Source: Escherichia phage pEC-M719-6WT.2
DNA: 64,000 nucleotides
Sequence record: OQ845958.1
Direction: 5' to 3' (one strand)
Shown in pieces: positions 2,117 to 60,473 of the stretch; position 1 is the stretch's first letter, and each line of letters starts with the position of its first letter. The notes under the pieces were generated by a model. The model did no database searches. It was not told the DNA's origin and worked only from the letters and a program-made list of their open reading frames with translations. Both the position numbers and the translations under genes were made by a program.

Positions 2117-2420
2117 TTTAAACCCATTTAAAAGTCAAAATATCATTGAGACTGATGAGATGAAAGGCTTGTTTAAAGAACTTCAGGAATTAACGACCCG
2201 AATATGTCTCCAATACGTTGAAGATTGCGGTACAACAGTTAGTATAGATTCCATCCATCGTAATATTCAATCTTCAATTGATTATGCCATTACTGTTTTT
2301 AAAATCCGGGCTAATTCGGCTTTAATAAACCAACCAAATACAAATTTACCGTTAGAAGAGTGTATTGCAATAGCGGCCTATACAGCTTATAATGAGATTG
2401 TAGATAATGACAAAGCGTAA
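2109..2420 (+). CDS. hypothetical protein
   Basis: ORF in gene chain; ATG-2109 chosen over TTG-2094. Confidence 0.4.
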
Positions 2421-2649
2421 AGAATATCTTGAGACTGCTGATAAGGCGGTCCGTGAATTAACTCTGGCCTATTATAAAGAACACGGTAAACTTCCGGATA
2501 GTTATTCAGTATTGAAATCTGCTTTAACTCGTTCATATAATAATATGCGTTCAGAAGTTTATGGTATTATGGTCAAACATAAAGAACAAACCGGTCAATA
2601 CCCCGATTATACTGAGACCTTCAAACAAGTATTAGGAATTAAGGAATAA
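2407..2649 (+). CDS. hypothetical protein
   Basis: 80-aa ORF, ATG start, overlaps neighbours. Confidence 0.45.
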
Positions 2650-2650
2650 T

Positions 2651-2914
2651 ATGTTTAAAGTATATGGTTATGATTCATCTATTCATCGCTGTGTATTCTG
2701 CGATAATGCAAAACGTTTTTTGGATGTTAAAAAACAACCTTACGAGTTCATCAACGTTATGCCAGAAAAAGGTGTGTTTGATGATGAGAAGATTGCCCAA
2801 CTCCTGGCTGCACTTGGTCGCGAATCTCAAATTGGTTTGACCATGCCGCAAGTATTTGCTCCTGACGGAAGTCATATTGGCGGATTCACTGAACTGCGAG
2901 AATATTTTAAATGA
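2651..2914 (+). CDS. nrdC: NrdC thioredoxin (glutaredoxin-like)
   Basis: 87 aa, MFKVYGYDS...CVFCDNAKR...MPQVFAPDGSHIGGF; near-identical to remembered T4 NrdC. Confidence 0.88.
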   Translation: MFKVYGYDSSIHRCVFCDNAKRFLDVKKQPYEFINVMPEKGVFDDEKIAQLLAALGRESQIGLTMPQVFAPDGSHIGGFTELREYFK

Positions 2915-3078
2915 TTGAATTATTGTTGGGTATTTTGTATCTTATCATCGGTATTGGTTATGCTAAGACCCTAGCTAAAATAGATGATTTCGGTGCGGGT
3001 GACTTTTGTTGGTGGCTGACGTCTATGATTTGTTGGCCTTTATTTCTGGTTGGTGCTTCATTCTGGAACTTTAAATGA
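2911..3078 (+). CDS. small hydrophobic membrane protein
   Basis: 55-aa ORF MIELLLGILYLIIGIGY..., ATGA overlap with nrdC stop; below ORF-track size cut-off. Confidence 0.35.
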   Translation: MIELLLGILYLIIGIGYAKTLAKIDDFGAGDFCWWLTSMICWPLFLVGASFWNFK

Positions 3079-3556: not shown

Positions 3557-3873
3557 CTATTGAAAATGAATTAGATGTTGATGCTGTTTTAAGCGAAATC
3601 ATTGAAGACCATGATGCGTTTACTGAATCATACGAGTTTGAATTTTCGGACTACCTGGTTCCGGTTGAATTAGGCGAATGGACACAATCTGGCAAATACC
3701 AATATCGCCAGGCAATTTATTTCAGCAAAAAACATAATGTACATGTGGCTGTAAACGAAACTCGTACCGGCTCTTATCATACCGACTGGGACCATATGGT
3801 CCCGACTGTTGAACTGGTCAAGCTCCAAGAACGTGTCGTAACCCAAACTATCAGAGAATGGATTACGCTATAA
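3553..3873 (+). CDS. hypothetical protein
   Basis: 106-aa ORF in coupled chain. Confidence 0.45.
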   Translation: MTIENELDVDAVLSEIIEDHDAFTESYEFEFSDYLVPVELGEWTQSGKYQYRQAIYFSKKHNVHVAVNETRTGSYHTDWDHMVPTVELVKLQERVVTQTIREWITL

Positions 3874-4163
3874 AACCATGGTACACCGCTCGATGGGAAA
3901 CCGTCGAGCCAGAGGAACCTGTTTACAACGATTCCGAAATAGATTATAATGAACCTTCAAACAATGATTTAATCGATATGGAGTTTGGATATGAGTACCA
4001 AAATTGAAATTGGCCGTCATAAAGGCCGCCTGATTGAAAAATCACTTTATGAACTGTCGGATTCCCGTAAGTTACCCGATGAAGAATCTGCTTTAATTTT
4101 TGCCGCGGCGGATTATATCCATTGGCTTGAAGCTCAACTTCGCTTTGCTGATAAGGCCTTTTA

Positions 4164-4436
4164 ATGTTTTTAGAAATTGTTAATATTCATGCGGCTGCTC
4201 AATCAGGTTTTATGAAAGAGCTTCAAGACGCAGGATTTAAAAATGGTGATGTTATCCATGCGTTAAGACAACGTTTTGACCCTGACGTTGAATGTAATGT
4301 TTGGGACGTTGTTGAAACGGATGAATACCTTTTTGATACCATAGAAATTGAAGGGTCATGGACCTGTATCACTGAGTATATGATAATTGATAATGGTAAC
4401 GTTGAATGCCATTATCCTTGTTTTAGGATTGTTTAA
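4164..4436 (+). CDS. hypothetical protein
   Basis: 90-aa ORF, ATG overlapping upstream stop. Confidence 0.4.
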   Translation: MFLEIVNIHAAAQSGFMKELQDAGFKNGDVIHALRQRFDPDVECNVWDVVETDEYLFDTIEIEGSWTCITEYMIIDNGNVECHYPCFRIV

Positions 4437-4647
4437 TGAAAACTGCATTAGTCTATACCGAAAAGTTAAACGGTGACAAGGTCTGGAAACTTCTTATCAA
4501 AGGAAGCCCTACTGACCAGTTTATGGCCACCTGTGTGGGATTGTATACTCGTCCTACTAAAAAGATGATTCGTCAATTTAAACGGTTACACCGCGCGTTT
4601 TATAAGATTTAATAAATACCCTTATCTAATAATGGTAAGGGTTTATT

Positions 4648-5121
4648 ATGTTGTTGACTGGCAAATTATACAAAGAAGAAAAACAAAAACTTTATGATGC
4701 ACAAGCTGGTAAGTGTCCAATTTGCCACCGTGATTTGGACTCCGATGTTCAGGCCAACCATCTTGACCATGACCACGAATTGAACGGGCCAAAAGCCGGT
4801 AAGGTTCGCGGGTTACTATGCAATCTGTGCAATGGGACAGAAGGACAAATGAAGCATAAGTTCAGCCGTTCGGGTCTGAAAAGTCGCGATGTTGACTACC
4901 TGGAATGGTTAGAGAGTTTGCTTGTCTATCTGAAATCTGATTATACCGAAAACAATATTCACCCCAATTTTGTAACAGACAAAGCCAAAGAGTTCGGTCG
5001 TCTGGGGAAAGAAGAAATGATTCGGGAAATGCTTTTGAATGGTATGACTTATAATGAATCTGACACCAAAACACAATTAATGGCTTCATTTAAGAAGCAG
5101 CTTAGAAAGAGTTTAAAATGA
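4648..5121 (+). CDS. 49: endonuclease VII (Holliday junction resolvase)
   Basis: 157 aa, MLLTGKLYKEEKQK...HLDHDHELNGPKAGKVRGLLCNLCN; near-identical to remembered T4 gp49. Confidence 0.92.
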   Translation: MLLTGKLYKEEKQKLYDAQAGKCPICHRDLDSDVQANHLDHDHELNGPKAGKVRGLLCNLCNGTEGQMKHKFSRSGLKSRDVDYLEWLESLLVYLKSDYTENNIHPNFVTDKAKEFGRLGKEEMIREMLLNGMTYNESDTKTQLMASFKKQLRKSLK

Positions 5122-6935
5122 CAATTGAAAACGAAATTGAAGGATTGATTCATAAAACTAATAAAGACCTTTTAAACGAGAATGCTAATAAAGATTCTCG
5201 TGTTTTTCCAACTCAACGGGACCTTATGGCTGGTATTGTATCTAAACACATTGCCAAAAATATGGTTGCGCCTTTTATTATGAAAGCACATGAAAGTGGA
5301 ATTATTCATTTCCATGATATTGATTATTCCCCTGCTCTTCCATTTACTAATTGCTGTTTAGTAGATTTAAAAGGAATGCTTGAGAACGGATTTAAGCTTG
5401 GTAATGCACAGATTGAAACTCCTAAATCAATCGGTGTTGCTACTGCAATTATGGCACAAATTACTGCACAGGTTGCTTCTCACCAATATGGCGGAACGAC
5501 TTTTGCTAATGTAGACAAAGTATTTTCTCCTTATGTTAAACGTACATACGCAAAACATATTGAAGATGCAGAAAAATGGCAAATCACTGATGCATTGAAT
5601 TATGCCCAATCTAAAACAGAAAAAGACGTATACGATGCATTCCAAGCTTATGAATATGAAGTAAATACTCTCTTTAGTTCAAACGGACAAACGCCTTTTG
5701 TAACCATTACATTTGGTACGGGAACTGACTGGACTGAACGAATGATTCAGAAAGCAATTCTGAAAAATCGTATCAAAGGTCTTGGTCGCGATGGGATAAC
5801 TCCTATTTTCCCTAAACTTGTTATGTTCGTTGAAGAAGGTGTTAATCTTTATAAAGACGACCCGAACTATGATATTAAGCAGCTTGCTCTAGAGTGTGCA
5901 AGCAAAAGGATGTATCCTGATATTATTTCAGCTAAGAATAATAAAGCTATCACTGGTTCATCTATTCCTGTTTCTCCAATGGGTTGCCGTAGTTTCTTGG
6001 GCGTATGGAAAGATTCGACTGGTAATGAAATTCTTGATGGACGTAATAATCTTGGTGTTGTAACACTGAATCTTCCTCGCATTGCGTTAGATTCTTATAT
6101 TGGAACACAGTTCAATGAACAGAAATTTATCGAATTGTTCAATGAGCGAATGGATTTGTGTTTTGAAGCTTTGATGTGTAGAATTAATTCCTTAAAAGGA
6201 GTTAAAGCGACTGTTGCTCCTATTCTTTACCAAGAAGGTGCATTCGGGGTTCGTCTTAAACCTGATGATGATATAATTGAGTTATTTAAAAACGGTAGAA
6301 GTTCAGTGTCTTTGGGATACATTGGTATTCACGAATTGAATATTCTTGCCGGTCGTGATATTGGGCAAGAAATTTTAACTAAAATGAATGCTCGTCTTAA
6401 GCAGTGGACTGAAAGAACCGGTTTTGCTTTTAGTTTGTATTCTACACCTGCTGAAAACCTTTGTTATCGCTTCTGTAAACTTGATACTGAAAAATATGGA
6501 AGTGTAAAGGATGTTACTGATAAAGGCTGGTACACTAATAGTTTCCATGTTTCAGTAGAAGAAAATATCACCCCGTTTGAAAAGATTTCCCGCGAAGCTC
6601 CATATCATTTCATTGCGACAGGTGGTCACATTTCTTATGTTGAACTTCCTGATATGAAAAATAACTTAAAAGGTCTTGAGGCTGTATGGGATTATGCTGC
6701 GCAACATTTAGATTATTTTGGTGTTAACATGCCAGTAGATAAATGTTTTACGTGTGGAAGTACCCATGAAATGACTCCTACTGAAAACGGATTTGTTTGT
6801 TCTATTTGTGGAGAAACTGACCCTAAAAAGATGAACACAATAAGAAGAACTTGTGGTTATTTGGGAAATCCGAACGAACGCGGATTTAATCTCGGCAAAA
6901 ATAAAGAAATCATGCATAGGGTTAAACACCAATGA
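5118..6935 (+). CDS. nrdD: anaerobic ribonucleoside-triphosphate reductase
   Basis: 605 aa, C-terminal glycyl-radical motif RRTCGYLG and Zn-ribbon cysteines; one uninterrupted ORF. Confidence 0.92.
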   Translation: MTIENEIEGLIHKTNKDLLNENANKDSRVFPTQRDLMAGIVSKHIAKNMVAPFIMKAHESGIIHFHDIDYSPALPFTNCCLVDLKGMLENGFKLGNAQIETPKSIGVATAIMAQITAQVASHQYGGTTFANVDKVFSPYVKRTYAKHIEDAEKWQITDALNYAQSKTEKDVYDAFQAYEYEVNTLFSSNGQTPFVTITFGTGTDWTERMIQKAILKNRIKGLGRDGITPIFPKLVMFVEEGVNLYKDDPNYDIKQLALECASKRMYPDIISAKNNKAITGSSIPVSPMGCRSFLGVWKDSTGNEILDGRNNLGVVTLNLPRIALDSYIGTQFNEQKFIELFNERMDLCFEALMCRINSLKGVKATVAPILYQEGAFGVRLKPDDDIIELFKNGRSSVSLGYIGIHELNILAGRDIGQEILTKMNARLKQWTERTGFAFSLYSTPAENLCYRFCKLDTEKYGSVKDVTDKGWYTNSFHVSVEENITPFEKISREAPYHFIATGGHISYVELPDMKNNLKGLEAVWDYAAQHLDYFGVNMPVDKCFTCGSTHEMTPTENGFVCSICGETDPKKMNTIRRTCGYLGNPNERGFNLGKNKEIMHRVKHQ

Positions 6936-7402
6936 ATTATGATAGAATTTATCCTTGTGATTTTATTAATGGCCCTGGATGCAGGGTCGTTCTTTTCGTC
7001 ACAGGTTGTTTGCATAAATGCGAAGGGTGTTATAATAAATCAACATGGAATGCTAGAAATGGTGTTCCATTCACTGGTGAAACACTAGAACAATTAATTG
7101 AATGTTTGGATAATGATTATATAGAAGGATTAACTATAACTGGAGGAGACCCTCTCTATCCTGATAACCGAGATGTTATTCAATCTGTGGTTCAAACTGT
7201 TAAAAATCTTTATCCAAATAAAAGCATTTGGATGTGGACAGGATATAAGTTTGAAGATATTAAACAACTAGAAATGCTTAAATATGTTGATGTTATTATT
7301 GATGGGAAGTATGAGAAAAATCTTCCGACCAAAAAACTGTGGCGAGGGTCAGATAATCAGCGACTTTGGTCAAATACCGATGGGGTGTGGAAACATGATT
7401 AA
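6932..7402 (+). CDS. nrdG: anaerobic RNR activating enzyme (radical SAM)
   Basis: 156 aa, CLHKCEGC radical-SAM cysteine triad; ATGA overlap with nrdD. Confidence 0.9.
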   Translation: MNYDRIYPCDFINGPGCRVVLFVTGCLHKCEGCYNKSTWNARNGVPFTGETLEQLIECLDNDYIEGLTITGGDPLYPDNRDVIQSVVQTVKNLYPNKSIWMWTGYKFEDIKQLEMLKYVDVIIDGKYEKNLPTKKLWRGSDNQRLWSNTDGVWKHD

Positions 7403-10687: not shown

Positions 10688-11245
10688 ATGAACGAAATTA
10701 AATTAACCAAGAATAACTATGTAAATAATAAAGAGCTTCTGAAAGCTATTTCGGAGTGGAAACAGAAGCTGAATGCGAACACCGACCCGAATAAAATTAT
10801 TCGCCAGAACGATGTTATTGGTCTGGCAATTATGCTTATAGCCGAAGGTCTTAGCAAACGTTTCAACTTCTCCGGATATACCCAATCCTGGAAGCAAGAA
10901 ATGATTGCAGACGGAATTGAGGCCGCAATAAAAGGTCTTCATAACTTCGACGAAACAAAATACGATAATCCACATGCTTACATAACAATGGCTTGCTTCA
11001 ATGCTTTCGTTCAGCGTATCAAAAAAGAACGTAAAGAAATGGCAAAGAAATATAGCTACTTCGTTCATAACGTGTATGATTCACGTGACGACGATATGGT
11101 GGCTCTGGCTGATGAAACATTTATCCAGGACATCTATGACAAAATGACACAGTACGAATCCTCTTTAGTTAAAGCGCCAGGGTCTGATAAGAGCGCCAAA
11201 GATAAAGAAGGTGATTTGGATTTTTTATATGGAACATCAATTTGA
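10688..11245 (+). CDS. 55: late-transcription sigma factor gp55
   Basis: 185 aa; long identical runs to remembered T4 gp55 ([35 protein letters not shown]). Confidence 0.92.
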
Positions 11246-11462
11246 TATTACCGATTTTTTAGATAAAATCGAGGAAGACTTTACTGCGCTCCCATATTTC
11301 ATTAAACTTTATCTGCGAGACATAAAAGGTCTTCCAATTGATATCGACCCTTTAAACGTCCGGAATCTGGAATTTACTTCGCCGGATAATAACGTTGATT
11401 ACCGTTATCATGTGGATAATGCTAATCTATATTTTACAATTGAGTTAACTCCCAAGGATTAA
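11229..11462 (+). CDS. hypothetical protein
   Basis: ORF from internal ATG of track ORF 11211. Confidence 0.4.
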
Positions 11463-11463
11463 T

Positions 11464-11775
11464 ATGCAAGCTCCAGATATTTCTCAACTGACCGATAAGC
11501 AGATTGAAGAAGCACAGGAACGTCTCGAAGAAGCGAACGCGCTCGAAGCACAGAGTCAAGCGGCAAAGATTCTGAAAAAGAATGCTCGTGAAATTGCACG
11601 ACTGAATAAGCATGCTCAAGGGGCAGTGCTGGAAAACAATTTTGAAGCATACAAATATGCTTTAGTTAAACTGCGTGGAATTTACCGCCAACCAGTTACG
11701 GAAGACCTGATTAAGTTGATGTGGGAAACTACTCGCAAACAAATTTGGGAAATCGTAAATGGCATTAGTAAATAA
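11464..11775 (+). CDS. hypothetical protein
   Basis: 103-aa ORF. Confidence 0.45.
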   Translation: MQAPDISQLTDKQIEEAQERLEEANALEAQSQAAKILKKNAREIARLNKHAQGAVLENNFEAYKYALVKLRGIYRQPVTEDLIKLMWETTRKQIWEIVNGISK

Positions 11776-12278
11776 ACCTTTTAAACGGCTTCTTGTTGGA
11801 GCCGCTTTCAGACTTCGCTCATATGGTAATATCTGTATCAAGCAGACTGAAACCGAATATAAAATGGTTGGGCAGTATTCCGATGAAATTTTTCGGATTG
11901 AGCCTGTAGCCAAGGTTTGGGTGGATTCACATCAACTTAAGAAGTGGTGGCAACGATGATAACATGGACTGCTGGTTAATGAATGACGAATACGAAAAAG
12001 TTTAAGAGGTGTATTATGACTATTGATGATGTAGATATTCTTACTTCCGACGAATTAAAACGATTGGGTAATATATTTCAAGACGAACATCCTGATTTTT
12101 AAGAGGTCATATGAATGACGAATTCGACGGATTTTGATAAGATTAAATCTGATAAAAATGAGATGATACTTCAATTTGAAGCCGCTCGTATTAAAGCAGA
12201 AAATGAAGGTACTATTAAATATAAGCCTATCAAGTTCAGGTCTTCTCATGAACCTCTGTATGGTGTATTAATTGGAAA

Positions 12279-12302
12279 GGAAGCCTAGTGCTTCCTTTTT
12301 TG
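12279..12302 (+). terminator. intrinsic terminator hairpin GGAAGC-ctagt-GCTTCC + T-run
   Basis: Perfect 6-bp stem followed by TTTTTTT. Confidence 0.55.
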
Positions 12303-12325
12303 CTTTATATTCGGGATGATAAAAT
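12301..12325 (+). promoter_or_regulatory. MotA-dependent middle promoter (TGCTTTA box, 12 nt, TAAAAT)
   Basis: Canonical MotA box at about -30 with TAAAAT -10, directly after terminator and upstream of gp47. Confidence 0.5.
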
Positions 12326-12345
12326 GAACCAACTGAGGAGAGTAT

Positions 12346-12489
12346 ATGGTATTATTTTTAGGATATGTCGTGTTATTCATGGCATTCTACACATTCACAC
12401 GAGCTTGTTGGATAGGATTCTTTTCTACTCCCGACGGGTTCATTTCAATAATTTTATTTTGCACTGCGATAACGGCGCTTGGCTTATGA
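12346..12489 (+). CDS. small membrane protein overlapping gp47 start
   Basis: 47-aa hydrophobic ORF with SD GAGGAG, ATGA overlap with gp47 start. Confidence 0.3.
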   Translation: MVLFLGYVVLFMAFYTFTRACWIGFFSTPDGFISIILFCTAITALGL

Positions 12490-13505
12490 AAATTTTAAAT
12501 TTAGGCGATTGGCACTTGGGTGTCAAAGCTGACGACCCATGGGCTCAAAACATTCAACGTGATGGTATTTTACAGGCGATTGCATATTCCAAAGCGAATG
12601 GAATTAAAGTCTGGATTCAATATGGTGATATTTTTGACGTCCGTAAGGCCGTAACGCATAAGACAATGGAATTCAGCCGCGAGATTATGGAACTCCTTCG
12701 TGAAGCAGGAATTACTATGCACACGATAGTCGGGAACCATGACATGAATCTGAAGAATAAGATTCATCCTAATGCTATCACTGAACTCCTGAATAAGTAT
12801 GACCATGTTAAAATCTACGACAAGCCAACGACTGTTGATTTTGACGGTTGTCAGATTGATATGATTCCATGGATGTGTGACGAGAACGCGACTGACATTC
12901 ATCAACACATCAAAACTTCTGGTGCCGAATATTGCATCGGTCACTGGGAATTAACCGGGTTTTATTTCTATAAAGGATTGAAATCCCATGGGCTTGAGCC
13001 CGATTTCCTTAAGAAGTACAAGCAAGTTTGGTCTGGGCACTTCCATACCATTTCGGAAGCTGCGAACGTTAAGTACATAGGGACACCATGGACATTAACA
13101 GCAGGTGATGAGAATGACCCGCGCGGATTCTGGGAATTTGATACAGAAACCGAAGAGATGAAATTTATTCCGAATGAAACCACCTGGCATCGGAAGATTT
13201 TTTATCCAAACGAAACTATTAACTACGACGACTTCAAAGACTTATCAGTCCGTGTTATTGTAGAAAAAGTCGATAAAGACCTGACCAAGTTCGAATCTGA
13301 ATTAGAAAAGCGTGTACATGAATTGCGTGTTGTCAATAAGGTTGATAACAGTGTTGATACGACTGACTCCGAAGAAGAGTTAGACATAAAACGCTTAACT
13401 GATATGATGGCAGAATATATTGATGCATTACCTGACACCAATGAGAAAGAATCAAAAGCTCTTAAAGCATTGGCCAACAAATTATATCTTGAGGTGCAAC
13501 CGTGA
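12486..13505 (+). CDS. 47: recombination nuclease subunit gp47 (Mre11-like)
   Basis: 339 aa from MKILNLGDWHLG..., phosphoesterase motifs GDIFD, GNHD; matches remembered T4 gp47 length and N-terminus. Confidence 0.9.
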   Translation: MKILNLGDWHLGVKADDPWAQNIQRDGILQAIAYSKANGIKVWIQYGDIFDVRKAVTHKTMEFSREIMELLREAGITMHTIVGNHDMNLKNKIHPNAITELLNKYDHVKIYDKPTTVDFDGCQIDMIPWMCDENATDIHQHIKTSGAEYCIGHWELTGFYFYKGLKSHGLEPDFLKKYKQVWSGHFHTISEAANVKYIGTPWTLTAGDENDPRGFWEFDTETEEMKFIPNETTWHRKIFYPNETINYDDFKDLSVRVIVEKVDKDLTKFESELEKRVHELRVVNKVDNSVDTTDSEEELDIKRLTDMMAEYIDALPDTNEKESKALKALANKLYLEVQP

Positions 13506-13964: not shown

Positions 13965-15643
13965 AAACGTTTAAGCTAAAGAAAGTCATCTACAAAAATA
14001 TTATGTCGGTTGGTGCTCAACCGATTACTGTTGAACTGGATAAAGTCCAAAAAACTCTGGTCACCGGCAAGAATGGTGCGGGTAAATCTACGTTCCTTGA
14101 AGCGGTTACCTTTGCTATGTTCGGTAAGCCTTTCCGTGATGTAAAGAAAGGCCAGTTGATTAACTCGAGCAACAAAAAAGATATGCTCGTTGAATTGTGG
14201 ATGGAATATGATGGAAAAGAATACTATATCAAACGCGGGCAAAAACCCAATGTTTTTGAAATCTCTTGTGGCGGTAAACGTCTTGATGAATCTGCCAGCA
14301 GTAAAGACTTCCAAGCGGAATTTGAACAGCTTATCGGAATGTCATACGCCAGTTTCAAACAAATTGTCGTACTCGGCACAGCTGGATATACCCCTTTTAT
14401 GGGCCTATCCACTCCTGCCAGAAGAAAGCTTGTCGAAGACCTTTTAGAGGTTTCTGTACTGGCCGATATGGATAAGCTGAACAAATCTCTTATCCGCGAA
14501 GTCAATAGCCAAATCCAGGTAATGGATGTGCAGCATGATGGTATCGTTCAACAGATTAAAATCTATCAGGACAACGAAGACCGTCAAAGAAAATTGTCAG
14601 GTGATAATCTGTTGCGACTGCAAACGATGTATGATGAACTTGCTACAGAAGCACGTGGAATCAAGGCAACTATCGAAGAAGCAACAACAAGACTGACCGA
14701 GATAATTTTGGGAGAAGACCCCGAGCACGAACTCACAAAGTTAAAGCAGGAATCATTCCTGATTAAATCGAAGATTGACGATTACCGAAAGGTTGTTGGT
14801 CTGTACGAGAAGGGCGGTTGTTGTCAGACTTGTGCCAGTCAGTTACATCCAGGAGACCCTATTGTCGCCAGGATTGAGTCAAAGATTGAAGAATGTAATG
14901 CATCAGCTGATAAGCATAAAGCTCGCCAGAATGCTGTTCAAGAGCAATTTGATGCGTATACCAAGGCAAGACAAAACCAGCGTACAATAGCTCAAGACAT
15001 TCAAACTAAGAAACAAACCTTAGTCCAGACTGTCGAAAAAGCTAAAAAGGTTAAAGCATTAATTGAGCAGGCCAAGTCAGAATTCATTGACCACGCAGCA
15101 GACATTAAAATGCTTCAAGACCAGCTTGATAAAATAGTCAAACAGAAATCTGACCTTGTGATGGAAAAATATCAACGTGGTATCCTAACGGATATGTTGA
15201 AAGATTCTGGTATCAAGGGCGCGATTATTAAGAAATATATTCCCATCTTTAATAAGCAGATAAACGCTTATCTTAAAGTTATGGAAGCTGATTATAGCTT
15301 TACGTTAGATGAAGAGTTCAACGAAACGATTAAATCTCGTGGGCGTGAAGACTTTAGCTATGCATCATTTAGCCAGGGTGAAAAAGCTCGTATAGATATT
15401 GCATTGCTGTTTACATGGCGCGATATTGCGGCAAAAGTATCTGGTGTTAATATTAACACATTGATTCTGGATGAAGTTTTTGACTCGGCCACAGATGTAG
15501 AGGGTGTTAAAGCAATTGCTACCATCCTGAACAAATTGGAAGACACCAACATCTTTATCATCAGTCACCGAGACCATGACCCGGAAGCATACGGACAACA
15601 TCTCCAGATGAAAAAAGTTGGTCGATTCACTGTTATGGAATAA
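13961..15643 (+). CDS. 46: recombination ATPase gp46 (Rad50/SbcC-like)
   Basis: 560 aa, Walker A GKNGAGKST, coiled-coil middle, CxxC hook (CCQTC), C-terminal signature. Confidence 0.9.
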   Translation: MKTFKLKKVIYKNIMSVGAQPITVELDKVQKTLVTGKNGAGKSTFLEAVTFAMFGKPFRDVKKGQLINSSNKKDMLVELWMEYDGKEYYIKRGQKPNVFEISCGGKRLDESASSKDFQAEFEQLIGMSYASFKQIVVLGTAGYTPFMGLSTPARRKLVEDLLEVSVLADMDKLNKSLIREVNSQIQVMDVQHDGIVQQIKIYQDNEDRQRKLSGDNLLRLQTMYDELATEARGIKATIEEATTRLTEIILGEDPEHELTKLKQESFLIKSKIDDYRKVVGLYEKGGCCQTCASQLHPGDPIVARIESKIEECNASADKHKARQNAVQEQFDAYTKARQNQRTIAQDIQTKKQTLVQTVEKAKKVKALIEQAKSEFIDHAADIKMLQDQLDKIVKQKSDLVMEKYQRGILTDMLKDSGIKGAIIKKYIPIFNKQINAYLKVMEADYSFTLDEEFNETIKSRGREDFSYASFSQGEKARIDIALLFTWRDIAAKVSGVNINTLILDEVFDSATDVEGVKAIATILNKLEDTNIFIISHRDHDPEAYGQHLQMKKVGRFTVME

Positions 15644-15678
15644 TGTTTTAAAACAAGGATGTTATAATAGAGGCTATT

Positions 15679-15870
15679 ATGGCTGACTTCTTAACCGGGC
15701 AGCATTTATTGGCTGTCCCTGAAATTAAACGGTATGTGTTAGTTAATACCTTTTCGAAAGATGAACACCTTGTCACTGAACGTGACTTGCAAAACGCTTT
15801 CGGTGAAGAATATGTTAAAATAATCGCGAACAGACACAATGCCTGGTTCGCATATGAATACTTTGATTAA
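15679..15870 (+). CDS. hypothetical protein
   Basis: 63-aa ORF. Confidence 0.4.
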   Translation: MADFLTGQHLLAVPEIKRYVLVNTFSKDEHLVTERDLQNAFGEEYVKIIANRHNAWFAYEYFD

Positions 15871-19070: not shown

Positions 19071-21785
19071 ATGCAAGAATTTTATTTAACTATCGAACAA
19101 ATCGGTGACAATCTGCTCGAACGATACATTGACAAGAACGGTCATGAACGTGTTCGTGAAATCCCTTATGCTCCATGCTTGTTTATGCATGCTCGCGAAG
19201 ACCAGGCTGCAAAGTATACAGACATCTATAATAAAGGTTGTGTGAAAAAAGAATTCGATTCCATGCGTGATGCATCCCAGTGGATGAAGCGAATGAATGA
19301 CATGGGTCTCGAAGCTATGGGTATGGATGACTTTAAACTCGCATACTTGTCCGACCGTTACCCGCACGAAATCAAATACGATTCAAGTAAAATCCGTGTG
19401 GCTAACTTCGATATCGAGGTGACATCTCCTGATGGGTTCCCTGAGCCGTCTGAAGCACGTCACCCTATTGATGCCCTGACGCACTATGATTCGGTAGACG
19501 ATAAATTCTATGTCTTTGACCTTTTGAGCTCACCATACGCCACTGTGGAGCAATGGTCTATCGATATTGCTGCTAAGCTGCAAGAAGATGGCGGTGATGA
19601 AGTCCCTGAAGAAATCCTGGAAAAAATTGTTTATATGGCTTTCGATTCAGAAGAAGAAATGCTCCAGCAGTATTTGGTATTCTGGAACGAGAAAACTCCG
19701 GTTATGTTAACTGGTTGGAACATCGAGAAGTTTGATATTCCATATATCTACAACCGCCTTAAAAATGTATTTGGTGAAGCTACAGCAAAACGACTGAGTC
19801 CACATCGTCGTACAAAAGTTAAGGTCATTAACAATGGCTTCGGTGAAGAACAAGAAATCATTCAGATTCTGGGTATCTCTGTTCTGGATTATCTGGACCT
19901 GTACAAAAAGTTCAGCTTCACAAACCAACCGTCTTATTCGTTGGATTATGTTGCGGAATCTGAACTTGGTGTTGGTAAACTCCCGTATGATGGTCCGATT
20001 TCTAAACTGCGTGAATCAAATCACCAACGGTATATTTCTTATAACATCATTGATGTTTATCGTGTTGTGCAGATTGACCGTAAGCGGCAGTTTATTAACC
20101 TGAGTCAGTCAATGGGTTATTACGCAAAAATGCAGATTCAGTCTGTATTCAGCCCAATCAAAACTTGGGATGCGATTATCTTTAACAGCCTGAAGACTCA
20201 AAACAAAGTCATTCCGGAAACCAAATCGCATGTTCGCCAATCGTTCCCTGGTGCATTTGTTAAGGAACCGATTCCGAACGCATACAAATACGTTATGAGC
20301 TGTGACTTAACATCTCTGTATCCGAGCATCATTCGACAGATTAACATCAGTCCAGAAACGATTGCCGGGTCATTTGCACCAGCGCCGATGTACGAATACA
20401 TTGCAGGAACTGCTGACCGTCCATCTGATACATTTAGTTGTGCTCCAAACGGTATGATGTATTTTAAAGATGTTGCGGGTATTATTCCGACAGAAGTCAC
20501 CAAGGTGTTTAATCAGCGTAAAGAGCATAAAGGTTATATGCTTGCGGCTCAACGTAATGGTGAACTGATTAAGGAAGCCCTGCGTAATCCAGGAACTGGT
20601 ACAACCGAGCCTGAAGTTGATTATCGTTATGACTTTGATGACAATATGAAAACAACCTTGCATGGTCTGAATCAAACAGTTCTGAATGGTATGTTGTACA
20701 AAGCGCAAATGGAAGAAGTTGCAGGCATGACCGCACAGATTAACCGTAAACTGCTTATCAACAGTTGTTATGGCGCTCTGGGTAATATCTGGTTCCGTTA
20801 CTTTGACCTGCGAAATGCAACCGCGATTACATCTTTCGGACAACTTGCATTGCAGTGGATTGAGCGTAAAGTTAACGAATATTTTGATAGTGTTTGCGGT
20901 ACAAGTGGTGAAACATATGTATTCTATGGTGATACTGACTCCATTTATATCCAGTGCGATAACCTGATTAAAAAGGTTGGTGGTGAATCTAAATTCCGCG
21001 ATACAAACCACCTGGTTGACTTCATGGACAAGTTTGCGAAAGACCGTCTGGAACCGGCAATCGATAAAGCTTTCCGTGAGCTGGCTGAATACATGAACAA
21101 CAAACAACACCTTATGTTTATGGACCGTGAAGCGATTGCATGTCCTCCGCTGGGTTCTAAAGGTGTTGGTGGATTCTGGACAGCGAAGAAGCGTTATGCT
21201 CTGAACGTGTACGATATGGAAGGCACACGATACGCTGTTCCGAAACTGAAAATCATGGGCCTGGAAACTCAAAAGTCGAGTACACCAAAAGCATGTCAGA
21301 AAGCTCTGAAAGAATGTATCCGCCGTATGCTGCAAGAAGGTGAAGAATCTCTGCAGACATACTTCAAGGAATTCAACAAGGAATTTAATGAGCTTAACTA
21401 CATGACCATCGCAGGTGTATCATCAGTTAACAACATCCAGAAATATAATGAGGGTGGTTTCCCTGGATTTAAGTGCCCAGCTCATATCAAAGGCGTGCTC
21501 GCTTACATGCGTGCAACTAAAGGTATGAAGACTGTTCCACAAATCATGGAAGGGGAAAAGGTGTATGTACTTCCTCTTAAAGTTGGTAACCCGTTTGGCG
21601 AAACCGTGATTGCATGGCCATCAGGGATTGAACTCCCGATTGAAATCCGTGACCAGGTTCTGCAGTGGATGGACTACAACACACTGTTCCAGAAGACTTT
21701 TGTCAAACCGTTAACAGGGTTCTCTGAAGCGGCTAAGGTTGATTACGAGAAAAAAGCATCTCTTTTTGATATGTTTGATTTTTAA
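19071..21785 (+). CDS. 43: DNA polymerase gp43 (family B)
   Basis: 904 aa; exonuclease and polymerase motifs (FDIE, YGDTDS), N-terminus matches remembered T4 gp43. Confidence 0.97.
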   Translation: MQEFYLTIEQIGDNLLERYIDKNGHERVREIPYAPCLFMHAREDQAAKYTDIYNKGCVKKEFDSMRDASQWMKRMNDMGLEAMGMDDFKLAYLSDRYPHEIKYDSSKIRVANFDIEVTSPDGFPEPSEARHPIDALTHYDSVDDKFYVFDLLSSPYATVEQWSIDIAAKLQEDGGDEVPEEILEKIVYMAFDSEEEMLQQYLVFWNEKTPVMLTGWNIEKFDIPYIYNRLKNVFGEATAKRLSPHRRTKVKVINNGFGEEQEIIQILGISVLDYLDLYKKFSFTNQPSYSLDYVAESELGVGKLPYDGPISKLRESNHQRYISYNIIDVYRVVQIDRKRQFINLSQSMGYYAKMQIQSVFSPIKTWDAIIFNSLKTQNKVIPETKSHVRQSFPGAFVKEPIPNAYKYVMSCDLTSLYPSIIRQINISPETIAGSFAPAPMYEYIAGTADRPSDTFSCAPNGMMYFKDVAGIIPTEVTKVFNQRKEHKGYMLAAQRNGELIKEALRNPGTGTTEPEVDYRYDFDDNMKTTLHGLNQTVLNGMLYKAQMEEVAGMTAQINRKLLINSCYGALGNIWFRYFDLRNATAITSFGQLALQWIERKVNEYFDSVCGTSGETYVFYGDTDSIYIQCDNLIKKVGGESKFRDTNHLVDFMDKFAKDRLEPAIDKAFRELAEYMNNKQHLMFMDREAIACPPLGSKGVGGFWTAKKRYALNVYDMEGTRYAVPKLKIMGLETQKSSTPKACQKALKECIRRMLQEGEESLQTYFKEFNKEFNELNYMTIAGVSSVNNIQKYNEGGFPGFKCPAHIKGVLAYMRATKGMKTVPQIMEGEKVYVLPLKVGNPFGETVIAWPSGIELPIEIRDQVLQWMDYNTLFQKTFVKPLTGFSEAAKVDYEKKASLFDMFDF

Positions 21786-21787
21786 GT

Positions 21788-21817
21788 GTTTACAACGGCA
21801 ATGGATTGCCGTATGAT
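21788..21817 (+). promoter_or_regulatory. early promoter (-35 GTTTAC, -10 TATGAT) with embedded hairpin
   Basis: GTTTAC, 18-nt spacer containing CGGCAA-tgga-TTGCCG, then TATGAT. Confidence 0.4.
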
Positions 21818-21857
21818 TACCTCATCAACTACTGATGAATAACTTAAGGATATTAAA

Positions 21858-22100
21858 ATGGAAACATTAATTGCAGGTACTGTTGTTCTTGGTGCTGGTT
21901 CTTTCTTCCTGGCTGCACTGGCATATTTTCTGCCGTGGATTATCGCGCTACTGCGAGGAACCAAAAGTAATTGCGGAATCTTCTTTGTTAACCTCCTGTT
22001 AGGTTGGACAATGGTCGGATGGTTTATTGCATTTATTTGGGCACTCGTTGCTGAGCGTAAATCAAATGCACATGTAATTATCATCAAGGAAACCAAATGA
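21858..22100 (+). CDS. imm: superinfection-immunity-type membrane protein (Imm-like)
   Basis: 80 aa, two TM helices, LLLGWTMVGWFIAFIWAL motif; sits after gp43 as T4 imm does. Confidence 0.5.
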   Translation: METLIAGTVVLGAGSFFLAALAYFLPWIIALLRGTKSNCGIFFVNLLLGWTMVGWFIAFIWALVAERKSNAHVIIIKETK

Positions 22101-22240
22101 AGATAATTACAATTATTGTACTGATTGCATTTTTTAGTATGTCAATCTATTGGGCAATAATGACTCCGCATATGATTCCAACTTTAATTTTGGGTTGGAT
22201 ATTTTTGGGACTCCAAGCTCGCTATGAATGTTTTAATTGA
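22097..22240 (+). CDS. small membrane protein
   Basis: 47-aa hydrophobic ORF, ATGA overlap with imm-like stop. Confidence 0.3.
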   Translation: MKIITIIVLIAFFSMSIYWAIMTPHMIPTLILGWIFLGLQARYECFN

Positions 22241-22250
22241 GGAAAATACA

Positions 22251-22754
22251 ATGAAAAAGTTAGCTATCGCAGCTGTTATGCTGCTATCCGGTTGTGCTTA
22301 CCAGGGTGATGTAGTTAATGCCAGTGAGATTGGTAAAGCAAGAATTGCTGCAGACCGTCAGGTGCATAATGGTTCCTTTGATTTCAAAGGTGGTACTGGA
22401 CTTATCTACAAACGCGACAACAATCAATGTGGAAATAACTGCGCAAAATATGCTCAACAAGAAATTGAGTACAAACGCGAGCAAGCTGCAAAGCATGACG
22501 AAATCATTGCCAAGCTGGAAGCAGAAACTAAGCGACAAAATGACCTGGACACTGTTAACCAGATTTCACAGGTATGCATGTCATATATCAATATGCAGAT
22601 AAACATCATGCGTGCAGAAGCTTATCAGGCAGCGGAGACGGGTTCTCCAAAAGCCAATGAGTATCGCGATATGTATCAGCGTTCTGCTCAAAACCGTCTG
22701 AGCTATATTAATAAATGTATAGCTAAAGAGAAAGCACGCCAAGGTATTAACTGA
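22251..22754 (+). CDS. putative lipoprotein
   Basis: Signal peptide with lipobox LLSGC; SD GAGGA before ATG-22251. Confidence 0.5.
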   Translation: MKKLAIAAVMLLSGCAYQGDVVNASEIGKARIAADRQVHNGSFDFKGGTGLIYKRDNNQCGNNCAKYAQQEIEYKREQAAKHDEIIAKLEAETKRQNDLDTVNQISQVCMSYINMQINIMRAEAYQAAETGSPKANEYRDMYQRSAQNRLSYINKCIAKEKARQGIN

Positions 22755-23096
22755 TGCTATTATTACTTCTGATTGTTGGAACAGTAATTGGTTTGCTGCT
22801 ATTAGAAAAGCGTAATAAGCATTTGGCTGAAGAAAACTGGAAACGTGGAAACGTTTACTAAATTACTCTGAACTGCGAGAAAAATATTATGATTGATATG
22901 CTATTGATTAGTCTGTGGCTGTTGTCTGCATTTGGTATTGGTTTTATGTACTGGTGGGACAAACGTCAGACCCGGAAGATTGTTGAACGTGCAATTAATC
23001 GTGGATTTAATCGTTAATTGCTCTAAAAATACAGTGATATAATTATCCTATCTTAAACCTGTGAGAAAAATATAATGGTGCCTATGGAAAAAATGA

Positions 23097-24275
23097 ATGT
23101 CTATTGCAGATTTGAAATCCCGTTTGATTAAAGCTTCTACATCCAAAATGACTGCGACTCTTACCAAGTCCAAGTTCTTTAATGATAAAGATGTAGTTCG
23201 TACAAAAATCCCAATGCTGAACATTGCAATCAGCGGTGCACTAGATGGTGGTATGCAGTCAGGTTTGACTATTTTTGCTGGTCCGTCAAAACACTTTAAA
23301 TCCAATATGGGTTTAACGATGGTCTCTGCATATATGAACAAATACCCCGATGCAATCTGTTTGTTCTATGATTCAGAATTTGGTATCACAGAAGCATATC
23401 TTCGTGCAATGAAAGTTGACCCGGAACGTGTTATTCACACACCAATCCAGTCGGTTGAACAATTGAAAGTTGATATGGTTAACCAGCTTGAAGCAATTGA
23501 GCGTGGTGAAAAAGTCATTATCTTCATTGACTCAATCGGTAACATGGCGTCTAAAAAAGAAACAGAAGATGCGATGAACGAAAAAGTCGTTGGCGATATG
23601 ACTCGTGCTAAATCCCTGAAATCTCTGTTCCGTATTGTTACCCCATATTTTAGTATCAAGGATATTCCTTGTGTCGCGGTTAACCATACAATCGAGACGA
23701 TTGAGATGTATAGCAAAACCGTTATGACCGGTGGTACAGGTGTTATGTATTCTGCGGACACCGTATTCATTATCGGCAAACGCCAGATTAAAGAAACTGG
23801 TAAAGAACTTGAAGGTTTCCAATTTGTTCTGAACGCCGAAAAATCTCGTATGGTCAAAGAGAAAAGTAAATTCTTCATTGATGTAAAATTCGATGGGGGT
23901 ATTGACCCGTATTCTGGCCTGCTTGATATGGCAATGGAAATCGGATTTGTGGTGAAACCGAAAGTTGGTTGGTATAACCGCGAATATCTTGATGTTGAGA
24001 CCGGTGAAATGGTCCGCGAAGAAAAATCATGGCGTGCAAAAGATACTAACTGCACCGAATTCTGGGGACCGTTGTTCAAGCACGAACCTTTCCGTGATGC
24101 AATCAAACGCCATTACCAACTGGGTGCAATCGATAGCAATGCTGTTGTTGACGCCGAGGTTGATGCGCTTATTGCCTCCAAGGTTGAAAAATACTCTGCT
24201 CCTGAAGGTAAGGTAAAACCATCTGCAGCAGATATCGAAAATGATTTAGATATGATGGAAGACCTTGATGAATGA
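23097..24275 (+). CDS. uvsX: RecA-like recombinase UvsX
   Basis: 392 aa; Walker A GPSKHFKS; long identical runs to remembered T4 UvsX. Confidence 0.95.
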   Translation: MSIADLKSRLIKASTSKMTATLTKSKFFNDKDVVRTKIPMLNIAISGALDGGMQSGLTIFAGPSKHFKSNMGLTMVSAYMNKYPDAICLFYDSEFGITEAYLRAMKVDPERVIHTPIQSVEQLKVDMVNQLEAIERGEKVIIFIDSIGNMASKKETEDAMNEKVVGDMTRAKSLKSLFRIVTPYFSIKDIPCVAVNHTIETIEMYSKTVMTGGTGVMYSADTVFIIGKRQIKETGKELEGFQFVLNAEKSRMVKEKSKFFIDVKFDGGIDPYSGLLDMAMEIGFVVKPKVGWYNREYLDVETGEMVREEKSWRAKDTNCTEFWGPLFKHEPFRDAIKRHYQLGAIDSNAVVDAEVDALIASKVEKYSAPEGKVKPSAADIENDLDMMEDLDE

Positions 24276-28439: not shown

Positions 28440-29468
28440 ATGTCATATATTGATAGAGAATTTGCAGTCAAAGCTTTATCGTATCAACCACGTTACAGAG
28501 AAGTCACCGGGAGCACATTTAAGGCAAACTGTCGTTGTAAGGTTTGTGGTGACTCCCAGAAAGATTCGCACAAGGCTCGATTCTGGGCGTATACCAATCC
28601 ATCTGATGGTGCGGTTTACGTGAAATGTTTTAACTGTGACTACTCCACGCATATAAGCAAATACATAAAAGAGTTTGAGCCGGATTTGCACCGGGAATAT
28701 ATGGTTGAGAAGTACAAGGAAAACGCCTTCGGTCGACAACGTAATGAAGTTGCAGAAGCTCCGAAAGAACCAGAAAAAACTCCGGTTATTGAAGAGCTTG
28801 CTTTTTGTGAAAGAATTGATACTTTACCAGAAGAGCATCCGATAGTTAAGTATGTAAAAAGTCGGTGTATTCCGAGCAATGTTTGGAACCGGTTATGGTT
28901 TACAAACAAATGGCCTGCATTAGTTAACTCCGTTAATCCTGGGACGTATAAGAATGAAACGAATGAACCACGCTTGGTTATTCCTATCTTCAACGGCAAA
29001 AAAGAAATCGAATCTTTCCAAGGACGAGCTCTTCGCAAAGATGCACCACAAAAATATATCACAATCAAAGCTCACCCAGAAGCTTCCAAAGTCTATGGCG
29101 TAGACAAGATTGATGAGCGCAAGCGCGTGTGGGTAATGGAAGGTCCGATTGATAGTTTGTTTATCCCTAACAGCATTGCGATAACTGGTGGAACATTAGC
29201 ATTGGAAGCCGTTCCTTATGCTGAAACCCGAGTATGGGTAATGGACAACGAGCCAAGACATCCGGATACGATTAAACGTATGAAGAAGCTCGTTGAAGCG
29301 GGTGAAGCCGTTATGTTCTGGGACAATGCACCATGGCATACGAAAGACATAAATGAGATGGTTAAATCGGAGGGCGCAACCCCTGAACAAATCGAATCAT
29401 ATATGGCCGATAACATTGCTCAAGGGTTGATGGCGAGAATGCGACTTTCGAAGTACGCAAAAGTTTAG
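28440..29468 (+). CDS. 61: DNA primase gp61
   Basis: 342 aa; N-terminal zinc ribbon (CRCKVCGDS...CFNCDY); same length as T4 gp61. Confidence 0.92.
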   Translation: MSYIDREFAVKALSYQPRYREVTGSTFKANCRCKVCGDSQKDSHKARFWAYTNPSDGAVYVKCFNCDYSTHISKYIKEFEPDLHREYMVEKYKENAFGRQRNEVAEAPKEPEKTPVIEELAFCERIDTLPEEHPIVKYVKSRCIPSNVWNRLWFTNKWPALVNSVNPGTYKNETNEPRLVIPIFNGKKEIESFQGRALRKDAPQKYITIKAHPEASKVYGVDKIDERKRVWVMEGPIDSLFIPNSIAITGGTLALEAVPYAETRVWVMDNEPRHPDTIKRMKKLVEAGEAVMFWDNAPWHTKDINEMVKSEGATPEQIESYMADNIAQGLMARMRLSKYAKV

Positions 29469-29586: not shown

Positions 29587-29784
29587 CTATATAAGGCCGA
29601 TTAATGCCAGTAAAATATCTACAACTGATTCGAGTGCAATGACTGGTAATATAACACCATGTGTCAATGCAACAGGGGCAACAACGAAGTTCCATAGTAG
29701 AACTAAACAGAGTATCGAAAGGACCAGAATCGTTCGCTTACGACTGCCTTTGATGGCTTGAATTAGACTAGATAGTTTGAGCAT
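29587..29784 (-). CDS. small two-TM membrane protein (reverse strand)
   Basis: 65 aa from internal Met with strong SD GGAGGA 5 nt upstream; hairpin downstream of stop. Confidence 0.45.
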   Translation of the reverse strand: MLKLSSLIQAIKGSRKRTILVLSILCLVLLWNFVVAPVALTHGVILPVIALESVVDILLALIGLI

Positions 29785-29869
29785 ATATCCTCCTTCCGTG
29801 TATTTATGCTTCAAACCAATATGATATAATTAACATACAAAATAACATGAATTGATAAGGAAAAATATA

Positions 29870-30388
29870 ATGGCTCATTTTAATGAATGTTCACAACTGA
29901 TTGCCGGTGTTGATAAAGCTGCTCTGGCTTATGACAATGCAATTACAAAAGGTACTGACCCGCTGCAGATTATGCTTGATATGCAGAAATCATTGCAAGT
30001 TCGTCTGGCTACTGAAAAACCAGAATATAACTCACATCCAGATGAATTGGCTACTGCAGGTGATGTTGTTGCATGGCTTCGTAACCAGAAAGATTATATC
30101 GACGACGAATTCCGTGAACTTCTGACTTCTCTCGGTGGTATGTCTAATGGCGAGAAAGCTGCATCTAGTGTATGGAAACCATGGAAAGTCCAACATGCTG
30201 AATTCCGTAATCGTCGTATTGATGAGTTGTCTCCCGAAGACCAGCTCGAAATTAAATTTGAGATGATTGATATCCTGCACTTTGTTCTGAACATGTTCCA
30301 TGGCCTTGGACTGACTGCAGAAGAAATCTTTAAATTGTATTACCTGAAAAACGCTGAGAACTTTGCTCGTCAGGACCGGGGTTATTAA
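29870..30388 (+). CDS. 56: dCTP pyrophosphatase gp56 (MazG-like dCTPase/dUTPase)
   Basis: 172 aa, MAHFNECSQLIAGVDKA...IDDEFRELLTSLG...FARQDRGY; strong match to remembered T4 gp56. Confidence 0.88.
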   Translation: MAHFNECSQLIAGVDKAALAYDNAITKGTDPLQIMLDMQKSLQVRLATEKPEYNSHPDELATAGDVVAWLRNQKDYIDDEFRELLTSLGGMSNGEKAASSVWKPWKVQHAEFRNRRIDELSPEDQLEIKFEMIDILHFVLNMFHGLGLTAEEIFKLYYLKNAENFARQDRGY

Positions 30389-46828: not shown

Positions 46829-46832
46829 CATT

Positions 46833-51986: not shown

Positions 51987-52018
51987 CAAACTGAATCACA
52001 AAAACTTTGGAGAATAAA

Positions 52019-60425: not shown

Positions 60426-60462
60426 TTCTTCAAGTCCTCTTCAACCGGCATATGATATTTTG

Positions 60463-60470
60463 TATTTATA
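60463..60470 (-). promoter_or_regulatory. late promoter TATAAATA for gene 36
   Basis: TATTTATA on + strand 38 nt upstream (minus sense) of gp36 ATG; SD AGAGGA. Confidence 0.55.
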
Positions 60471-60473
60471 ACG

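Follow-up and report, generated by a model that had tools for sequence, protein, structure and literature searches.

Absence of the known cytosine-modification genes from a Gaprivervirus coliphage, and a thymidylate synthase predicted to methylate dCMP

In phage T4, whose DNA carries glucosylated 5-hydroxymethylcytosine (hmC), gene 42 and beta-gt occupy the interval between the DNA polymerase gene (gp43) and the recombinase gene uvsX. The corresponding interval of Escherichia phage pEC-M719-6WT.2 (positions 21786 to 23096 of a 64,000-nucleotide stretch from sequence record OQ845958.1, all of which was analyzed and which we call the window) contains neither gene, and alpha-gt and dam are missing from their own sites, while gp56, which destroys dCTP (deoxycytidine triphosphate), is kept. 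The locus therefore raises the question of which base such a phage uses in place of plain cytosine. We consider it fairly probable that the DNA of its genus, Gaprivervirus, has 5-methylcytosine (5mC) in place of cytosine, and that the phage thymidylate synthase (TS), encoded by td and carrying an aspartate at position 177, acts as a methyltransferase on deoxycytidine monophosphate (dCMP).

Segment 19000 to 26100 of the window matches 32 phage records at 94 to 98% identity over at least 80% of the query (megablast), including SP18, VR7, VR20, VR26, MN01, RZ and TH40, and by these matches the phage is a T4-like coliphage of the SP18/VR7/MN01 group, the genus Gaprivervirus. Over this segment, the window and MN01 share 97.4% identity, and the whole MN01 genome (172,584 bp, put together from four pieces) served as a stand-in for whole-genome searches. 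Comparison of the window with T4, open reading frame (ORF) by ORF with tblastn, found it collinear throughout, from nrdC.5 through rIIA to gene 34, with the genes met in the order nrdC.5, 55, 47, 46, 45, 44, 62, regA, 43, uvsX, 41, 61, 56, dda, 39, rIIA, rIIB, denB, ndd, 52, motA and tail-fibre genes. Because the whole window is collinear, the gaps at syntenic positions are real deletions and not products of rearrangement.

A sequence-only reading of this DNA had reported that the gp43-uvsX interval holds only an Imm-like protein, a putative lipoprotein and three tiny hydrophobic ORFs, that only short ORFs and no alpha-gt lie between gp55 and gp47, and that no dam separates gp61 from a conserved gp56. 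ORF and family matches bear out each of these observations (Table 1): neither alpha-gt (E > 1) nor mobB is found among the small genes of the gp55-gp47 interval, and the gp61-gp56 spacer contains one minus-strand ORF that is not a methyltransferase. No dam is annotated in the gp56-gp61 interval of JS98 (sister genus Dhakavirus) either.

The reading left two possibilities, the first of which was that other parts of the genome carry the hydroxymethylase and the sugar transferases, giving standard glucosyl-hmC chemistry, as the 64 kb shown of a genome of ~170 kb would allow. Across the window and the whole of MN01, however, tblastn returned no match to T4 gp42, beta-gt, alpha-gt or Dam (all E > 0.4; E > 1.6 everywhere for alpha-gt and beta-gt, and E > 2.6 throughout for Dam). 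Hidden Markov model (HMM) searches of the six-frame translations gave nothing below E 0.2 with a gp42-type model and found only td with a TS-type model. The arabinosyl-5-hydroxycytosine genes of JS98, orf38-42, likewise have no tblastn match at E < 0.01 in the window or the whole of MN01. The missing genes are not elsewhere in the genome, because the complete MN01 genome is without any match; for MN01 this possibility is refuted, and for the phage itself, given the published genus-wide absence and the description of VR7 DNA as unglycosylated (PMC6326788), it is hardly tenable.

The second possibility, a cytosine modification different from that of T4, is supported by the same searches of the complete MN01 genome and by two comparative papers (2021 and 2025; PMC8056088 and PMC12115623), which describe the same gene absence across the genus and leave the base as an unknown non-canonical one. 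The first of these finds Gaprivervirus without all known base-modifying enzymes, with denA, denB, alc and gp56 kept, and suggests that its members “possibly have an unknown protein” (PMC8056088). The genes really are missing, throughout the genome, and the literature already records this as an open puzzle; that the phage does not use plain cytosine is likewise supported.

Aspartate 177 in the Gaprivervirus thymidylate synthase

The gene that probably explains the puzzle was invisible to the sequence-only reading, because td lies outside the window. MN01 has a sole TS-family protein, which in alignment reads GLPFDIGSY where E. coli ThyA and the td protein of JS98 read GLPFNIASY. The residue at E. 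coli position 177 is thus Asp in MN01 td, as it is in T4 gp42 and JS98 orf39, and Asn in ThyA and JS98 td. The rest of the active site is that of a TS: 18 of the 19 catalytic and pocket residues are canonical, position 177 being the only one to differ, with Leu143, Cys146, His147 and Asp169 unchanged, and the protein is full length (286 aa, ending PMAV, with the TS C terminus intact). Beside the pocket lie the clade-specific substitutions F149L, A179G and A182G, which may improve the new activity. T4 td is 82% identical to JS98 td and 64% identical to MN01 td, and the best Protein Data Bank match is T4 TS itself (1TIS), with Asn at the equivalent of 177.

The substitution is clade-wide. It occurs in td of the Gaprivervirus phages MN01, SP18, VR7, TH40 and CJ20 and in the protein clusters P0002 to P0004 (P0004 being Gaprivervirus vB_YenM_P8, and P0002 and P0003 metagenomic sequences), and the variant is present in 32 phage records (megablast), including 30 Gaprivervirus records from a gp43-gp41 query; in 170 other T4-type td sequences, position 177 is Asn. 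Asp177 was also found in a second lineage, in metagenomic TS proteins (P0074 and P0121) from T4-type contigs that carry frd, nrdA, nrdB, denA, rnlA, alc and pseT, so that the switch is not confined to one genus. This uncultivated lineage has a td of 292 aa with the motif GLPFDIASY in the usual frd-td-nrdA context (Logan contigs, 3953-4831 in SRR24146912 and 2142-3020 in SRR22560167), and one of its contigs has two ORFs with an ALC domain.

Published work on TS-family enzymes supplies rules by which these residues can be read. Changing Asn177 to Asp turns a canonical TS from dUMP (deoxyuridine monophosphate) to dCMP as substrate, yielding 5-methyl-dCMP (PMC8670742, summarising Graves 1992, Hardy & Nalivaika 1992, and Liu & Santi 1992). 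At residue 143, a bulky hydrophobic side chain excludes water and gives a methyl product, and an acidic one goes with hydroxymethylation; D169N is the mark of 5-hydroxy-dCMP synthases, and RB69 DNA contains arabinosylated 5-hydroxycytosine (PMC13326640, 2026). When TS homologues chosen by the residue-177 rule were coexpressed with T4 gp1, five of the seven predicted enzymes, as well as the Xp12 enzyme, made 5-methyl-dC (bioRxiv 10.1101/2024.12.05.627091). By these rules, Gaprivervirus td is a predicted dCMP methyltransferase.

VR7, whose td carries Asp177, provides the experimental counterpart. Gordeeva et al. (2018; PMC6326788) cut VR7 DNA with enzymes sensitive to modification, in the presence or absence of T4 beta-glucosyltransferase, and concluded that it “has modified cytosines” and is unglycosylated; there, the DNAs of VR5 and T4 are glycosylated and that of T4147 is hydroxymethylated, and VR7 is listed apart from T4147. 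Since td has Asp177 and VR7 DNA is, on that account, cytosine modified, unglycosylated and set apart from hydroxymethylated DNA, a 5mC genome is predicted.

A modified cytosine other than 5mC would result if td(Asp177) made 5-hydroxymethyl-dCMP or some other product, or if an unrecognised enzyme made an undescribed base, the latter being the view of the 2021 and 2025 papers. The VR7 DNA is termed simply “modified cytosines,” and BREX (bacteriophage exclusion) restricts VR7 completely, about as much as it does T4 with non-glucosylated hmC (both PMC6326788); the comparative papers of 2021 and 2025 leave the base open, and residue rules are imperfect predictors. Set against this, Leu143, a canonical Asp169 and a full-length C terminus together are a methyl signature and not that of L143D/E or D169N, VR7 is listed apart from the “hydroxymethylated” T4147 in the same study, no glycosyltransferase is present, and MN01 has no ORF of its own above 168 aa, so that we regard such a base as unlikely. 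More specifically, a base that is neither hmC nor simple 5mC and is as yet undescribed in T4-type phages, either a further-processed product of td(Asp177) or the work of an unrecognised small-ORF enzyme, with gp1, Alc and DenB retuned to it, receives little credence from us.

Candidates for such an enzyme were sought among the remaining genes of MN01. Setting aside an HNH homing endonuclease and small paralogous proteins, the ORFs that have no homologue in T4 or JS98 are all 168 aa or shorter, and none is enzyme-like. Two ORFs were considered as substitute enzymes and rejected: one of 228 aa (MN01 66543-67229), a possible His-x-Asp oxygenase, and one of 319 aa (65524-66483). They belong to families of unknown function only (DUF7275/DUF7277, phrog_1843, phrog_2141), and cannot explain a Gaprivervirus-specific chemistry because both also occur in JS98 and RB69.

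Methylation after replication, by a DNA cytosine methyltransferase of phage or host, would be another source of 5mC. Against it, strain BL21, on which VR7 was grown, is dcm-negative. The VR7 growth host and the digests come from PMC6326788. In favor of such a route, the enzymes by which VR7 was classed there as cytosine modified included some that Dcm or CpG methylation is said to block. Also against it, no match to Dam was found, each MN01 ORF longer than 168 aa has a homologue in T4 or JS98, and the annotated regions of T4 and JS98 show no cytosine methyltransferase; moreover, keeping a dCTPase would be senseless if dCTP were the precursor for incorporation. We judge this route very improbable.

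Proposed route to the modified base

Much of the T4 machinery is retained: MN01 carries gp56, gp1, cd, frd, alc, denA, denB and ndd, collinear with T4. When the 33 genes common to JS98 and MN01 are ranked by identity, three of these, gp1, alc and denB, fall in the bottom four (47%, 48.5% and 48.7% identity, respectively, against a median of 73%), and denB is 45.5% identical to its T4 counterpart in MN01 and 71% in JS98. This divergence fits a changed base, which the three proteins must recognise. By comparison, gp56 is 87% identical between JS98 and MN01, and the MN01 cd protein, of the dCMP deaminase family, is 86.5% identical to T4 cd.

That gp56 is kept does not settle the matter by itself, because two genera with cytosine-containing DNA, Krischvirus and Pseudotevenvirus, retain it along with denA (without denB and alc; PMC12115623). 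It could accordingly be argued that Gaprivervirus DNA contains unmodified cytosine, like that of RB49 and the other krischviruses, with gp56 serving only as a dUTPase and with alc and denB changed or having lost their selectivity for cytosine DNA; that no dedicated modification gene is recognisable would agree with this. But Gaprivervirus has both denB and alc, and ndd besides, its gp56 is highly conserved with that of the cytosine-modifying JS98, an Asn177-to-Asp change in the sole TS would be hard to explain, and VR7 DNA acts as cytosine modified in restriction tests (PMC6326788). Ordinary cytosine is in our view improbable.

Under the 5mC reading, gp56 would turn dCTP and deoxycytidine diphosphate into dCMP, and td(Asp177) would methylate dCMP to 5-methyl-dCMP with methylene-tetrahydrofolate, the resulting dihydrofolate being recycled by frd. 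In MN01, frd overlaps td by 4 bp, an arrangement that fits because the proposed reductive reaction yields dihydrofolate. The phage gp1 and host Ndk would then phosphorylate 5-methyl-dCMP to 5-methyl-dCTP, which gp43 would build into DNA, and Alc, DenA and DenB would thereafter hit only the cytosine-containing DNA of the host. Deoxythymidine monophosphate (dTMP) might be supplied by ThyA of the host, by breakdown of host DNA, or by deamination of a 5-methyl-dC nucleotide; for 5mC phages it has been argued that deoxythymidine triphosphate is made through deamination of 5-methyl-dCTP, so that a second TS is unneeded (bioRxiv 10.1101/2024.12.05.627091). The missing genes, the layout of the deletion and N177D across the clade in an otherwise canonical active site are observed directly; what td does in this phage, that the base is 5mC, and where dTMP comes from are inferred.

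Several points weigh against 5mC. A mechanistic one is that Alc and DenB would have to spare 5mC-DNA. A genome fully substituted with 5mC is also an expected target of McrBC, McrA and Mrr, and phage RZ was isolated on MG1655, with arn and ipI absent. Growth on K-12 and B strains without arn and ipI implies an anti-restriction function of another kind. Position 177 of td in pEC-M719-6WT.2 itself is taken from relatives 93 to 97% identical to it. The genome-wide absence of the modification genes was searched for directly in MN01 and for the remaining genus rests on the 2021 and 2025 papers. The rules drawn from these residues are correlations, and two of the seven enzymes that they predicted were not confirmed (bioRxiv 10.1101/2024.12.05.627091); the VR7 base is named just “modified cytosines” in PMC6326788. 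The literature searched contained neither a biochemical or mass-spectrometric identification of the Gaprivervirus base nor any publication linking Gaprivervirus, Tevenvirinae or N177D to 5mC.

As to anti-restriction genes, neither the McrBC inhibitor gene arn of T4 nor ipI has a homologue in MN01 or in the examined parts of JS98. Window positions 54403-54716 were noted together with this absence, as was the fact that these phages, with their unglycosylated modified DNA, still grow on McrBC-positive hosts.

Anatomy of the gp43-uvsX interval and other features of the window

The gene order of the interval in JS98 is 43, imm, orf44, the lipoprotein gene orf43, orf42 to orf38, and uvsX, the five genes from orf42 to orf38 being homologues of RB69 ORF052c, 051c, 045c, 048c and 047c. 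DNA alignment pairs window positions 21732-22551 with JS98 27298-26501 and window 23033-23300 with JS98 21929-21669, and the mapped breakpoints place the 4.2-kb orf38-42 block of JS98 exactly at the position of the 35-aa ORF of the window. Within this block, orf39 (22959-23657) encodes a divergent TS-fold protein that matches T4 gp42 at E 3e-8 and has Asn at E. coli position 169. Dhakaviruses, which are scored “hmC +” in PMC12115623, probably carry arabinosyl-5-hydroxycytosine rather than hmC. Compared across T4, JS98 and the window, the gp43-uvsX interval is a hot spot for each lineage's own cytosine-modification genes, which in Gaprivervirus is empty.

The sequence-only reading had seen the small envelope proteins of this interval as a replacement cluster that may act in superinfection exclusion. 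As a description of the whole cluster, this does not hold: imm, the 47-aa ORF and the lipoprotein gene are not replacements, because they also stand beside the modification genes in JS98 and partly in T4. Together with the 42-aa ORF, they are resident neighbours, and what survives of the idea concerns the 35-aa ORF, which alone fills the deletion site. The suggested role in superinfection exclusion finds homology support for Imm only. The Imm homologue, which adjoins gp43, scores 64.3 bits against PF14373 (gathering cutoff, 27.9), is 51% identical to T4 Imm and 67% identical to JS98 Imm, and has hydrophobic segments that match the Imm pattern of a small two-helix membrane protein.

The 47-aa ORF matches JS98 26949-26815 and T4 26319-26230 (the latter, “42.1,” being unannotated in T4) and is 96 to 98% identical in VR7 and RZ. 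The lipoprotein is 98% identical in VR7 and RZ and 52% identical to JS98 orf43, and its N-terminal 28 aa are 54% identical to T4 Imm.1 (E 6e-4). For the 35-aa ORF, no family match in Pfam or PHROGs and no match anywhere was found. VR7 has nothing at this site (VR7 locus 3752-3790), a clean insertion/deletion of ~100 bp that amounts to a presence/absence polymorphism within the genus. The C-terminal half of the 42-aa ORF matches an unannotated stretch of JS98 in the spacer upstream of uvsX (22015-21947; E 2e-5). That the 35-aa and 42-aa ORFs might be remnants of lost genes was considered and rejected, the former matching nothing and the latter only this JS98 spacer. In scans of the gp43-uvsX locus for promoters and terminators, sites were no more numerous than in shuffled sequence.

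Table 1. Features of the gp43-uvsX interval, of the other sites of missing T4 genes, and of retained cytosine-exclusion genes in the window
Feature	Positions	Strand	Evidence or remark
gp55 late sigma factor, flank of T4 alpha-gt site	10688-11245	+	80% identical to T4 gp55
Homologues of T4 a-gt.5, a-gt.4, a-gt.3, a-gt.2, 47.1	11211-12486	+	tblastn E 1e-12 to 1e-22 each
gp47 nuclease subunit, other flank of alpha-gt site	12486-13505	+	72% identical to T4 gp47
gp43 DNA polymerase, left flank of gp43-uvsX interval	19071-21785	+	904 aa, 60% identical to T4 gp43
Sigma-70-like promoter match TTTACA-17-TATGAT ahead of imm	21789-21817	+	Consensus match only; sites fewer than shuffle expectation
imm, superinfection immunity membrane protein, 80 aa	21858-22100	+	PF14373 E 9.5e-18; phrog_1039
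47-aa membrane ORF	22097-22240	+	phrog_3610 E 1e-26; equals T4 “42.1,” JS98 orf44, RB69 ORF054c
Lipoprotein, 167 aa, lipobox LSGC, signal MKKLAIAAVMLLSGC	22251-22754	+	phrog_1754 E 3e-47
35-aa membrane ORF	22754-22861	+	At JS98 modification-gene insertion site; present in MN01 and RZ; cleanly absent from VR7
42-aa membrane ORF	22889-23017	+	93-98% identical in MN01, RZ and VR7
uvsX recombinase, right flank of gp43-uvsX interval	23097-24275	+	79% identical to T4 UvsX
gp61 primase, flank of T4 dam site	28440-29468	+	60% identical to T4 gp61
75-aa ORF, sole ORF in 401-bp gp61-gp56 spacer	29587-29814	-	phrog_2024; not a methyltransferase
gp56 dCTPase/dUTPase	29870-30388	+	68.6% identical to T4 gp56 over 172 aa; phrog_173
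denB, endonuclease IV, cuts cytosine-containing DNA	46794-47426	+	phrog_1360 E 9e-80; unusually diverged
ndd nucleoid disruption protein	49587-50036	+	61% identical to T4 Ndd

Further observations concern other parts of the window and of MN01. The conserved 75-aa ORF of the gp61-gp56 spacer runs against the direction of the early genes, and its match in T4 is the unannotated segment 17735-17935, located between gene 61 and dam. MN01 has a mobB-like HNH homing endonuclease gene (14977-15693, minus strand) between genes 46 and rpbA, with a product that shares 44% identity with T4 MobB across 126 aa (E 7e-26); no tblastn match to T4 MobB was found in the window. The window's NrdD (nrdD, 5118-6935) shows 98% protein identity to T4 NrdD over 425 aa, against 50 to 85% for neighbouring genes, and nrdD and nrdG (6932-7402) are missing from the corresponding position of MN01, which looks like a recent transfer from a Tequatrovirus. 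Finally, window 52007-52234 encodes a member of a small paralogous protein family with the ending motif VVQSYASNF/Y, of which MN01 has at least three copies (60055-60480, 60933-61376 and 133598-133825) and for which no T4 or JS98 homologue was found at E < 1e-3.

Relation to known systems and significance

Four known systems bear comparison with the arrangement described here, as follows.

(i) Xanthomonas phage Xp12, together with Pseudomonas phage PaMx74, fully replaces cytosine with 5mC by means of a TS-family dCMP methyltransferase. The likeness to Gaprivervirus lies in an enzyme of the TS family whose predicted substrate is dCMP and whose predicted product is methylated, at the nucleotide level and before replication, with no sugar; there is also no second TS, with thymidine nucleotides possibly arising through deamination of a 5-methyl-dC nucleotide. 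The differences are that Gaprivervirus phages are T4-type myoviruses of E. coli, Shigella and Yersinia that possess all of the T4 apparatus for keeping out host cytosine DNA, namely gp56, alc, denA, denB and ndd; that their enzyme is a close orthologue of T4 td (64 to 70% identical) in the frd-td position, apparently point-substituted, and not a distant homologue; and that 5mC is here predicted from genes.

(ii) T4 itself shares the conserved, collinear set from gp56 to ndd, and also the logic by which dCTP is destroyed and a modified dCTP is made from dCMP through a TS-fold enzyme with Asp177. Gaprivervirus differs in the absence of gp42, alpha-gt, beta-gt, dam and arn, in the unglycosylated state of VR7 DNA (PMC6326788), and in its TS-fold enzyme, which has Leu143 and not an acidic residue.

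(iii) RB69 and JS98 share with the window the neighbouring imm, small membrane ORF, lipoprotein gene and uvsX, as well as the insertion point. All five genes (JS98 orf38-42) are absent from Gaprivervirus, including the D169N TS homologue orf39 and the nucleotidyltransferase-kinase orf42.

(iv) The laboratory mutants E. coli TS N177D and Lactobacillus casei TS N229D (cited through PMC8670742 and PMC13326640) have the identical substitution in an otherwise canonical active site. Here, by contrast, the variant is natural, is fixed in all the Gaprivervirus td genes that were examined as well as in another, uncultivated lineage, and is accompanied by the neighbouring F149L, A179G and A182G.

The proposed strategy, Xp12-type 5mC made by a TS-family enzyme, is thus a known one, and its setting is new, having apparently been reached through point conversion of td. 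If this is true, Gaprivervirus members would be the first T4-type coliphages shown to swap all their cytosine for 5mC, and td would be a natural case in which N177D makes a TS a dCMP methylase in an otherwise conserved phage, answering the question of the “unknown non-canonical base” left by the two comparative papers. A 5mC genome would account for the sensitivity of VR7 to BREX and would predict sensitivity to methylation-dependent nucleases, both of which would bear on the choice of phages for therapy and on the risk of transduction. Fully 5mC-substituted DNA and a dCMP methyltransferase would also become available from phages that are easily grown on E. coli. Within the T4-like phages, Gaprivervirus members would allow a three-way comparison among hmC (T4), 5-hydroxycytosine (JS98) and 5mC (Gaprivervirus), by which the discrimination of modified from plain cytosine by gp1, Alc and DenB could be studied.

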